Source: Felis catus
Lineage: Eukaryota
DNA: 64,000 nucleotides
NCBI RefSeq assembly: GCF_018350175.1
Contig: NC_058368.1
Location: 89,468,001 to 89,532,000 of the forward strand
Direction of reading: 5' to 3'
Shown here: one piece after another, positions 10,791 to 13,176 of the stretch
Layout of the letters: the number at the start of each line of letters is the position of its first letter
How positions within the stretch are numbered: position 1 is the stretch's first letter
Notes under the pieces: model-generated
Database searches by the model: none
What the model saw: the letters and a program-made list of their open reading frames with translations, nothing else
What the model was told of the DNA's origin: nothing
Made by a program: the position numbers and the translations under genes

Positions 10791-12249
10791 TGGAAATGTG
10801 TTTATTTTGCATTCAAAGACTGGTAGGTATTGCTGCTAATAGACCTACCCTACAAGAAATTTTAAAGAAAATACTACAGGTTTAATAGAAATGACACCAA
10901 GTCGTCACTCAAATACACATGAAGAAAGGAAAAGAAAAAAAAAAAGCATTGGGTAAATACTACTGTGTAAGTAAAACAAAAGACAATCCAAATACATTTT
11001 TTTCTTTGTTTCTCTAAACTAATCTAAAGAAAATTGTATAAAGCAATACTAATAAAACTACAATGTTGGGCTTAAATGAATATATAACTTGTAAGGCCAA
11101 AAAGTAGAAAGCATTGAAGAAGGAATGGAGTGATGTTAGAGCAAAGTTTTCATATTTTATTGGAATAAAGTGATAACATCTGATAAATTCTGATAGATAC
11201 ATTTTGAATGCCTACAGCAAAAGCTAAGAAAATGGCAAGAAAAGACAGTGTAAACTTCAAGAAAGTTGTTATAATGATATATTACAACATAAGAAATTTA
11301 AAAAATAATTTGCCATTTTATACAGTAATAGGCAGATAACAGAACAAGGTTCAAAAATATTTTGCTGAACAAAAGAAGCCAAATACAAAAGTTGTTTTCA
11401 TTCATACAAAGATCAAGAAAAAGCAAACTTAGTCTATTTGGATGGAAATCATAATAGTGGAGGATAGAGATAAAAATGGTTGTTTGAGGGGGACTAATAA
11501 ACTGCAAAATGACAAGAGAATCCTTCTATAGTAGTGGTCATTCACTATACATAGTTCAAGTTACATTTGTCAAAAAATGACTAATACATTTGGAAATAAA
11601 AGCTGTATACTTATAATCTATATATTTGACTGAATGTGAATCACATTTCTTAAAAACACTGAGTGTACCTCTCTCCCTGGTATCTCACCGCTGCCTCAGT
11701 GCAGTTAGGCATCAGCAAATTAATGAGAGGAGAGAGGAGGCCCCTGCTCTTGGGCACCCGCAGGAACTTACTCCAGCTCCAGACACACCGTAAACACTTT
11801 CATCTAACGGAAGATAAGCTGTGAAATCGGATTTCTGAACCACAAGACACTTGTGTAAAAACTGCATTCCATGCCAGGCCTGAAATGTTCCAAAGCTCAG
11901 TTCGCTATCAGCATCCCAGGTGGTGCAATTAATAAAGAGCTAGCGTGGGGCCACTGGCACAAACAAGGCAGCTCCTTAGAACCTGAACTTCCTATTTGTT
12001 CCATTCCTTGGGTAGATAATGCCTGTTAATTACTCTGGAGGGGAGTCAGGAATAAATTCAAAACAGATACCCATCTGCCCATGTGCCTGGTGGACATTTC
12101 CAGTCAACCTGAAGCCTTCTGGTTGCTCTATGTTCCCTGGTTTTGTTAGAACATTCTATCTGGTCTCGCTGGATCAAGCTCTCCTCTCCAGATCGCCCTA
12201 TATGGGGAACTGAAAATAATCCTCGTTTCAGTGAAATTATTTTGGCGAG

Positions 12250-13176
12250 GAGAGAGGGAAGATGGCGGCGTAGGAGGACGCTGGGCTCACCGTGCGTCCT
12301 GCTGATCACTTAGATTCCACCTACACCTGCCTAAATAACCCAGAAAACCGCCAGAGGATTAGCAGAACGGAATCTCCGGAGCCAAGCGCAGACGAGAGGC
12401 CCACGGAAGAGGGTAGGAAGGACGGCGAGGCGGTGCACGCTCCACGGACTGGCGGGAGGGAGCCGGGGCGGAGGGACGGCTCGCCGGCCAAGCAGAGCCC
12501 CCGAGTCTGGCTGGCAAAAGCGGAGGGGCCTGACGGACTGTGTTCCGACAGCAAGCGCGACTTAGCGTCTGGGAGGTCATAAGTTAACAGCTCTGCTCGG
12601 AAAGCGGGAAGGCTGGAGGACAAAGGGAGGGAGAGCTGCTGAGCCCCTGGACGACAGAGCTCAGTTTGGTGGGGAACAAAGGCACTCGCCAGTGCCATCT
12701 CCCCCGCCCATCCCCCAGCCAAAATCCCAGAGGGAACCAGTTCCTGCCAGGGAACTTGCTCGCTCCGCGCAAACACCCAACTCTGTGCTTCTGCGGAGCC
12801 AAACCTCCGGCAGCGGATCTGACTCCCTCCCGCTGCCACAGGGCCCCTCCTGAAGTGGATCACCTAAGGAGAAGCGATCTAAGCCTGCCCCTCCTGCCCC
12901 CGTGCACCTTGCCTACCCACCCCAGCTAATACGCCAGATCCCCAGCATCACAAGCCTGGCAGTGTGCAAGTAGCCCAGATGGGCCAGGCCACCCCACAGT
13001 GAATCCCGCCCCTAGGAGAGGGGAAGAGAAGGCACACACCAGTCTGACTGTGGCCCCAGCGGTGGGCTGGGGGCAGACATCAGGTCTGACTGCGGCCCCG
13101 CCCACCAACTCCAGTTATACACCACAGCACAGGGGAAGTGCCCTGCAGGTCCTCACCACTCCAGGGACTATCCAAA
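12250..13176 (+). promoter_or_regulatory. L1 5'UTR internal promoter (CpG-rich, YY1 motif)
   Basis: GC/CpG-rich, starting gagagagggaagatggcggcg. YY1 sites near L1 5' ends are established knowledge. Confidence 0.8.

Follow-up and report, generated by a model that had tools for sequence, protein, structure and literature searches.

A spliced host leader, probably launched from a retroviral LTR, on a family of cat L1 retrotransposons

How did a full-length L1 retrotransposon in the cat genome come to carry more than half a kilobase of unrelated sequence ahead of its own 5′ end? The element lies on the plus strand, at positions 11669-18168, of the stretch of DNA analysed here, a window of 64,000 nucleotides from Felis catus (NCBI RefSeq assembly GCF_018350175.1, NC_058368.1, positions 89,468,001 to 89,532,000 of the forward strand). 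It is flanked on both sides by a target site duplication (TSD), and its ancestral YY1-type start (..GGAGAGAGGGAAGATGGCGGCG) is found at ~12247-12270, ~580 nt inside the element. An earlier examination of the letters alone (the sequence-only reading) had placed a ~580-bp non-L1 leader inside this TSD and had recognized the same leader, with essentially the same start base and an unrelated flank, on a minus-strand L1 in the window. Both observations hold: the TSD at 11652-11667 is repeated after the poly(A), the segment matching the plus-strand leader covers 2171-2752 on the minus-strand L1, and from the first common base onward the two copies differ within the window at 2 of 2752 positions, both of them CpG>TpG. 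The leader exists as claimed, but its limits, given as 11668-12250, had to be moved: the non-L1 part is 11669-12246, a leader of 578 nt in both L1s with an identical first base (11669 and 2752, respectively). The claim that older L1s in the window (near 18490 and 38036) begin at the YY1-like motif is likewise borne out by degenerate versions of that motif.

The leader shows no similarity to anything else in the 64-kb window. It is CpG-poor, with a GC content of 47.5% and a CpG observed/expected ratio of 0.34; the corresponding values for the old L1 5′ untranslated region (UTR) are 62% and 0.78. The possibility that the leader is L1-derived, or an inverted piece of L1, was rejected on zero similarity in comparison. 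Its longest open reading frames (ORFs) span 52 and 64 amino acids and contain no Pfam family, and a search for known RNA families gave two sub-threshold chance matches only, both in the L1 5′UTR. The leader's words also occur in sequencing runs; the matches listed (20 of 24) comprise DNA-type runs under three organism labels, at shares of 0.81-0.86, and six RNA-labelled runs, all in contig form, at 0.32-0.81, and we base no conclusion on them.

Across the genome searched (2.43 Gb in 71 contigs, of which those coded C1, C2, C37, C38 and C47 are mentioned here), the leader is found in separate blocks in a segmentally duplicated array at C37:43.43-43.88 Mb and on contig C38 (63.6 kb). The array holds at least 10 units of ~17-33 kb with uneven content: a long terminal repeat (LTR) element with exons 1-3 is present in five units, exons 4-6 are present in ten, and the exon 7 site is empty in four and filled in six. 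Exon 1 lies 0.74 kb upstream of exons 2 and 3, exons 4, 5 and 6 follow one another at spacings of 0.6 and 0.2 kb, and the exon 7 site is 5.7 kb beyond exon 5. Every exon border read in the array is canonical (AG/../GT, slashes marking the borders), with the blocks in sense orientation. Because the blocks lie apart in the array and are bounded by canonical splice sites, the leader is made up of six exons (Table 1), and the block variants seen among its copies represent exon skipping. A 97-nt core of exon 5 (12042-12138) occurs at 13 places genome-wide, namely in the 10 array units and in 3 L1 copies (both window copies and one on C47). On this exon structure, the leader appears to be the 5′ part of a spliced host transcript, and neither L1 sequence nor random flank.

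The link between this transcript and an L1 is found at exon 7. In four units the empty site reads cattag/TATTTTCTTTTAG/AAATTATTTTGGCAACTT, an L1-free exon whose two acceptors are separated by 13 nt; in the six filled units an L1 poly(A) is followed directly by AAATTATTTTGGCAACTT (in a longer read, AAATTATTTTGGCAACTTAATCC). A comparison of the two states indicates that a full-length L1 inserted in sense orientation 13 nt into exon 7, with AAATTATTTTGGC as its putative TSD. The dispersed copies carry AAATTATTTTGGC after exon 6 and then the L1, and TATTTTCTTTTAG precedes it in exon-6-skipping forms and in some forms that keep exon 6.

Exon 1 starts inside a 331-bp TG..CA element, flanked on both sides by CACAT, that begins TGAAAGAC and ends ..ATAACA. 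Upstream of the exon the element contains the boxes CCAATCAG and CAATAAAAC (CCAAT and TATA-like, respectively), with CAATAAAAC ~27 nt ahead of the start, and an AATAAA lies downstream; no primer-binding-site-like sequence was found after the element. A first look at the family gave at least 1550 candidates, 40 of which were scored at 91-100% identity, and the 35 scored matches outside the array are 91-95% identical over the element. The ends, the direct repeat, the dispersed copies and the order of the boxes all fit a solo LTR of an endogenous retrovirus, as which we classify the element on these grounds. By its TGAAAGAC start and box order it may be gammaretrovirus-like. In the 30 leader loci fetched from elsewhere in the genome, the U3 part of the LTR is never present. 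The genomic LTR base just before exon 1 is G, and a G precedes the leader in 22 of the 30 fetched copies as well as in the minus-strand window copy; the G in front of most copies can therefore be either templated or cap-derived.

Because exon 1 is present in all LTR copies, the 454 first-look candidates for the leader over-count the family, and we relied instead on the spliced exon 1-exon 2 junction, which occurs at 52 places genome-wide (≤3 mismatches). The start base (CTCTCTCC..) is the same in 28 of the 30 fetched leader loci, whose distinct flanks number 29, one of them being common to L006 and L028. A TSD and a poly(A) are present in all four copies that could be evaluated: the plus-strand window copy and three further ones, with TSDs of 11-16 nt and a G outside the TSD in 3/3; another fetched 3′ end is interrupted by a short interspersed element (SINE). 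The old start without a leader gave 3604 first-look candidates, and a YY1-type start without leader was seen in 18 of the 20 best matches fetched. No fixed difference between leader-bearing and leaderless sets was found in 12262-12645. Non-CpG divergence from the family majority ranges from 0.31 to 2.9%.

The genomic distribution of the copies is uneven. C47, which makes up 5.3% of the genome (127.8 Mb) and which we take to be X-sized, holds 26 of the 52 spliced-leader copies (binomial p ~7e-20), versus 5 of 35 leaderless best matches (Fisher p 6e-4). An older age of the C47 copies was considered as the cause of this bias and rejected, the difference not being significant (p 0.11). There are also local clusters of leader copies, for example at C2:60.04/60.09 Mb and C47:44.74/44.81/44.88 Mb.

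Splice forms were read in 43 of the copies. Exons 1-4 are joined to the L1 in 16 and exons 1-3 in 7; exon 5 alone is skipped in 13; all exons are kept in 3; a cryptic acceptor in the L1 at 12314 is used in 2; one copy has exons 1-3-6; and one (L032) is 5′-truncated within exon 4. Some exon-skipping joins connect 12040 or 11904 with 12233 by way of 13 additional bases, others lead to 12314, and once the two exon-7 acceptors, both of which are used, are counted separately there are at least 8 forms. Further, 13 of 41 copies lack a 429-nt piece of the L1 5′UTR (12413-12841) with GT..AG borders, and each of the two largest forms (exon 5 skipped; exons 1-4) includes copies with and without it. This loss is a SpIRE (spliced integrated retrotransposed element) by definition, being a GT..AG-bounded internal 5′UTR deletion in retrotransposed copies. 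On a tree of the L1 body (685 non-CpG columns, 41 copies; truncated L032 and short L037 left out), splice form changes 21 times, compared with 21.7 ± 1.6 changes after shuffling; 116 of 300 shuffles reach the observed value, and L1-body variants cross-cut the splice forms. The tree thus shows no clustering of forms, and does not prove a single master. A spliced DNA copy has no introns, so that each form needs an intron-bearing source, and such a source launched copies many times.

We think it likely that the array gave rise, many times over, to retrotransposed copies of an mRNA that was driven by the LTR, spliced, and terminated by the L1. Under this model, a solo LTR in the array would start a multi-exon transcript whose exons 1-6 would be spliced to exon 7, with termination at the poly(A) signal of the exon-7 L1. 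The resulting chimeric mRNA would join exons 1-6 to the complete L1 through 13 or 26 nt of exon 7, and L1 machinery would copy it into new sites, leaving the LTR promoter (U3) behind. Launches would have been spread over a period of 0.3-2.9% non-CpG divergence. The copies retain the old internal L1 promoter downstream of the leader. In kind, the event would be a 5′ transduction with exon trapping, driven by an LTR. We are less sure that the array itself, and not secondary sources in the form of dispersed leader copies, gave rise to most copies directly. With 0.31% non-CpG divergence, the two window copies are the family's youngest members, and they have the rare all-exon form; the only other copy of that form belongs, with 2.3%, to the oldest. 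For this youngest pair a secondary source may have been at work.

The sequence-only reading had offered two explanations for the shared leader. In the one, two separate insertions went back to one source element whose transcription began at a fixed site upstream; that mechanism finds support in the donor array, the six exons and the LTR start, but the scale of two events does not survive the 52 junction places. In the other, an L1 lineage had recruited a new 5′ leader or promoter; here the scale was right, but the claim finds no support as worded, given that U3 is not carried along, that there are at least 8 splice forms and that these do not cluster on the tree. The same reading had suggested a genome search for a donor locus, possibly with spliced exons, and for many L1-linked leader copies with distinct TSDs; the search yielded the donor array and many copies in distinct flanks.

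Several observations weigh against launching from the array as it is assembled. The unspliced 5′ junction that the model predicts (intron 6 end, exon 7 start, L1 start) has 0 matches in the assembly at ≤3 mismatches. In the one filled unit whose sequence was read throughout, the L1 begins at ~12302, so that its first ~55 nt are gone, as is the end of intron 6; in their place stand ~10 kb of other sequence with a ~176-nt tandem repeat among it. This tandem repeat recurs in a second filled unit (unit e), where it is found within a stretch of 1.5 kb (L082, C37:43747000-43748500) that lies 5.2-6.7 kb upstream of the 3′ junction of that unit's L1. The 429-nt piece kept by 28 of 41 copies is absent from the resident L1 of the fully read unit, which therefore cannot be their direct parent; and because the window pair is very young, a live source should have existed recently. 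Three exon-4 bases common to all 34 exon-4-bearing copies differ from the four units read, and two exon-6 bases shared by the copies are likewise absent from these units. A pure master-locus model would not lead one to expect that, of three all-exon copies, two are neighbours at a distance of 8.9 kb. Finally, the tree has little resolving power, being star-like with 0 of 37 inner branches well supported.

Two candidates for an intact source were rejected. The L1 in unit C37:43837738+ cannot serve as direct parent, as it is 5′-damaged and lacks 12413-12841 and 14331-16242, and C47:48865815 has a spliced exon 1-exon 2 junction 440 nt upstream, which marks it as a copy. Site 12007 in exon 4 was surveyed in all ten units, and the L1-type base was found only in C37:43728591. 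The array contains a 100-N gap at C37:43847465-43847564, 1 kb ahead of one unit's expected exon 7. The recent source may lie in this gap, may be absent from this haplotype, or may have been a dispersed copy. The ~176-nt-period repeat, whose units are ~90% alike, stands just 5′ of the truncated L1 of unit C37:43837738+, at offsets ~22067-24784 (L067).

These difficulties lend some weight to the idea that the array acted as founder once or a few times and that the leader-bearing L1s then served as sources themselves, transcription being initiated at base 1 by the leader, perhaps jointly with the downstream L1 promoter; this corresponds to the second explanation of the sequence-only reading. Such self-propagation would account for the absence of an intact source from the assembly, the precise 5′ ends (28 of 30 copies), the long span of activity (0.3-2.9% non-CpG divergence), the exon-4 and exon-6 bases not found in the four units read, and the near-identity of the two youngest copies, which are neighbours. 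It is possible above all for that pair. As an explanation of the family we nevertheless consider it improbable: the copies do not contain the LTR U3, and the leader they do contain is CpG-poor, with a ratio of 0.34 and 47.5% GC against 0.78 and 62% in the old 5′UTR. At least 8 splice forms demand an intron-bearing template, the forms make no clades where one inherited leader structure would be expected, the 429-nt piece varies within each major form, and ~52 copies stand against 3604 first-look leaderless candidates. A host transcript could instead have been joined to an unlinked L1 RNA by trans-splicing or by RNA-RNA recombination (template switching), a route that the accessible part of a preprint raises for human chimeras whose donor gene has no L1 (bioRxiv 10.1101/2025.02.02.635956) and that would fit the lack of an assembled intact cis source. 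The junction speaks against it. The 13 or 26 nt of exon 7 in the copies are the TSD and upstream flank of the exon-7 L1 in the array, so that joining to an unlinked L1 is disfavoured; moreover, both natural exon-7 acceptors are used, and the identical junction recurs in ~50 copies. We give this route hardly any credence.

A different doubt concerns the window pair, whose identity would say nothing about a recent source if the two L1s were older inverted neighbours homogenized by gene conversion, or products of one DNA-level event. The pair is indeed inverted and 8.9 kb apart, no TSD was found for the minus-strand copy, and the similarity is uneven. Over the full length the copies are 99.5% identical (21 mismatches and 2 indels in 6511 columns), with near-perfect agreement (4 differing sites) in the first 5.2 kb; in the last 1.3 kb (16851-18093) there are 17 differing sites and two indels, of 10 nt and 1 nt, and divergence in the last 0.7 kb is 2.6%. 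Yet the identity begins exactly at base 1 of the leader amid unrelated flanks, as retrotransposition gives, conversion cannot transfer a leader without upstream homology, and both copies are the closest of 41 to the family majority, which conversion within a pair would not produce. We therefore regard homogenization as very unlikely and prefer two retrotransposition events. The 3′ divergence would reflect either a mosaic 3′ end in one copy or conversion of part of the pair. The 5′ flank of the minus-strand copy (2753-3000) is the 3′ end of an older L1, and its 3′ flank (C1:89462845-89464220) is the ORF2 part of an older L1 that runs in the same direction and shares 79% identity with the young element. 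These flanks and the absent TSD suggest an insertion with target deletion, or into a rearranged old L1.

Table 1. Coordinates of the leader-bearing L1 copies in the window and of their parts. Slashes mark splice borders.
Feature	Position	Strand	Details
Minus-copy L1 body	1..2174	-	extends 3758 nt left of the window, to C1:89464242
Leader exons 1-6 and 13 nt of exon 7, minus copy	2175..2752	-	2 differences from the plus copy
5′ TSD of plus-strand L1, aaaaacactgagtgta	11652..11667	+	second copy beyond poly(A)
Extra C between TSD and leader	11668	+	minus copy: G at 2753
Leader exon 1, 36 nt	11669..11704	+	putative LTR R-region start; donor CAGTGCAG/gtaggg; L081 offset 4859-4896, 37/41 aligned bases identical
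Leader exon 2, 145 nt	11705..11849	+	99-100% identical to L072-L075; ccccaag/../gtaaga
Leader exon 3, 55 nt	11850..11904	+	100% identical in four units; cttacag/..GTTCG/gtgagt
Leader exon 4, 136 nt	11905..12040	+	L062-L065 offset ~4266-4401, 97% identical; ccgcag/..CTGGAG/gtaagt
Leader exon 5, 99 nt	12041..12139	+	98-100% identical; tttttcag/..CCCTG/gtaaaa; skipped in most copies
Leader exon 6, 94 nt	12140..12233	+	94% identical; ctcccag/..CAATG/gtctgt
First 13 nt of exon 7, AAATTATTTTGGC	12234..12246	+	same as source-L1 TSD
Ancestral L1 5′UTR, GC- and CpG-rich, YY1-type start	12247..13176	+	
Cryptic acceptor, cacttag/ATTCC	12314	+	within L1 5′UTR
Optional intron, 429 nt, AGG/GTAGGA..CCACAG/GG	12413-12841	+	within L1 5′UTR
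ORF1, 297 amino acids, open	13177..14070	+	Pfam Transposase_22, Tnp_22_dsRBD
ORF2 region, interrupted	14121..17935	+	Pfam Exo_endo_phos, RVT_1
3′ TSD copy, aaaaaacactgCACTGagtgta	~18164-18184	+	overlaps poly(A) end; 5-nt internal duplication

Both window copies share two breaks in ORF2, a TAA in frame (14928-14930) and a shift of frame near 15901-15935, and additional breaks are private to the plus-strand copy. The TAA sits between the endonuclease and reverse-transcriptase parts and is followed 6 nt later by an in-frame ATG. An exact 43-mer containing it occurs at least 100 times genome-wide, with 1817 matches at ≤1 mismatch; the stop is common to a large, young group of L1s and is no private lesion. 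If both shared interruptions were present in the source RNA, mobilization would have been in trans, a point that we do not press, the first of them being family-wide. In L1Base2, cat has 1 intact full-length L1 versus 8075 non-intact ones (PMC5210629). Elsewhere in the window, a 300-nt direct repeat (26499-26798 and 49222-49521) is 99% identical over a distance of 22.7 kb.

Several known systems bear a likeness to the cat family. Classical L1 5′ transduction also puts non-L1 sequence inside the TSD through upstream initiation; it transfers unspliced contiguous flank in single insertions, whereas the cat leader is spliced, derives from a 15-20 kb genomic span and was inserted ~50 times. SVA_F1, in which exon 1 of MAST2 is joined to an SVA element, numbers ~84 copies, the same order as the cat leader copies, and in those copies its MAST2 exon, a CpG island, presumably serves as promoter. 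By contrast, the cat leader is poor in CpG, spans six exons and is subject to alternative splicing, and the element that carries it is an L1, SVA being non-autonomous. In the accessible part of a review, L1 5′ transductions are called "almost non-existent", the MAST2-SVA family is described as an outcome of exon trapping that, as in the cat, gave a recognizable group with a host-derived 5′ end, and at least 13 SVA 5′ transductions are traced to one source (PMC4859970).

The closest parallel is human. The accessible part of a preprint by Law and Burns describes 17 mRNA- or long noncoding RNA-L1 5′ chimeras, among them one from an intronic L1PA2 in RAP1GDS1 that gave two independent insertions by way of a cryptic acceptor 15 bp upstream (bioRxiv 10.1101/2025.02.02.635956). 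As far as that account goes, both cases have sense host exons spliced to a near-full-length L1 via an acceptor that precedes a resident L1 by a few bases, and in both the independent insertions have differing TSDs and the external promoter is not carried along. They differ in scale, with 2 independent human insertions (4 copies) against ~52 cat copies in at least 8 splice forms, and in promoter, that of a human housekeeping gene against a putative solo retroviral LTR. In addition, the cat L1 is placed inside an exon and uses that exon's two acceptors, its donor is a multi-copy array, and it keeps its own 5′UTR promoter in most forms, so that it is not promoter-dead.

Law and Burns speculate, in the part accessible, that such chimeras drive 5′UTR turnover (bioRxiv 10.1101/2025.02.02.635956), and the accessible part of PMC9252281 cites Khan et al. 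2006 for a "UTR recruitment scenario". As these two sources present it in part, serial replacement of the L1 5′UTR resembles the cat case in that new, unrelated 5′ sequence appears without intermediates; there, however, the new 5′UTR replaces the old one and acts as promoter, whereas the cat copies retain the old 5′UTR in most forms. The 429-nt loss in 13 of 41 copies and the two copies spliced to 12314 recall human SpIREs, as described in the accessible part of PMC5860796, except that the sites are felid ones and the events are combined with host exons. Our literature searches found no paper on the cat L1 leader. The kind of event is thus known; new here are the probable LTR promotion, the six exons, the alternative splicing, the ~50 progeny and the readable source site.

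As a tentative and rather doubtful extension, the exon-7 L1, lodged in a spliced and presumably non-coding transcript of the amplified array, may have been a long-lived launch pad, in which the LTR drive and an mRNA-like disguise may evade the silencing directed at the L1 5′UTR or at intronless L1 RNA, giving ~50 heritable insertions, half of them on C47. The youngest all-exon copies may by now fire from their own leader, in which case they would be a 5′UTR replacement intermediate caught in the act.

How L1 elements swap their 5′UTRs is a long-standing question, and exon trapping has been proposed as an answer from a handful of single human insertions. Here one genome holds the likely promoter LTR, six exons, both acceptors, the source site in empty and filled states, and ~50 progeny. 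For repeat annotation, the ~580 nt of apparently unique sequence ahead of some felid L1s carries a warning, as it would consist of retro-copied exons. For the biology of the family, these data suggest that an L1 source can be kept going over a long period by a promoter that it has borrowed.

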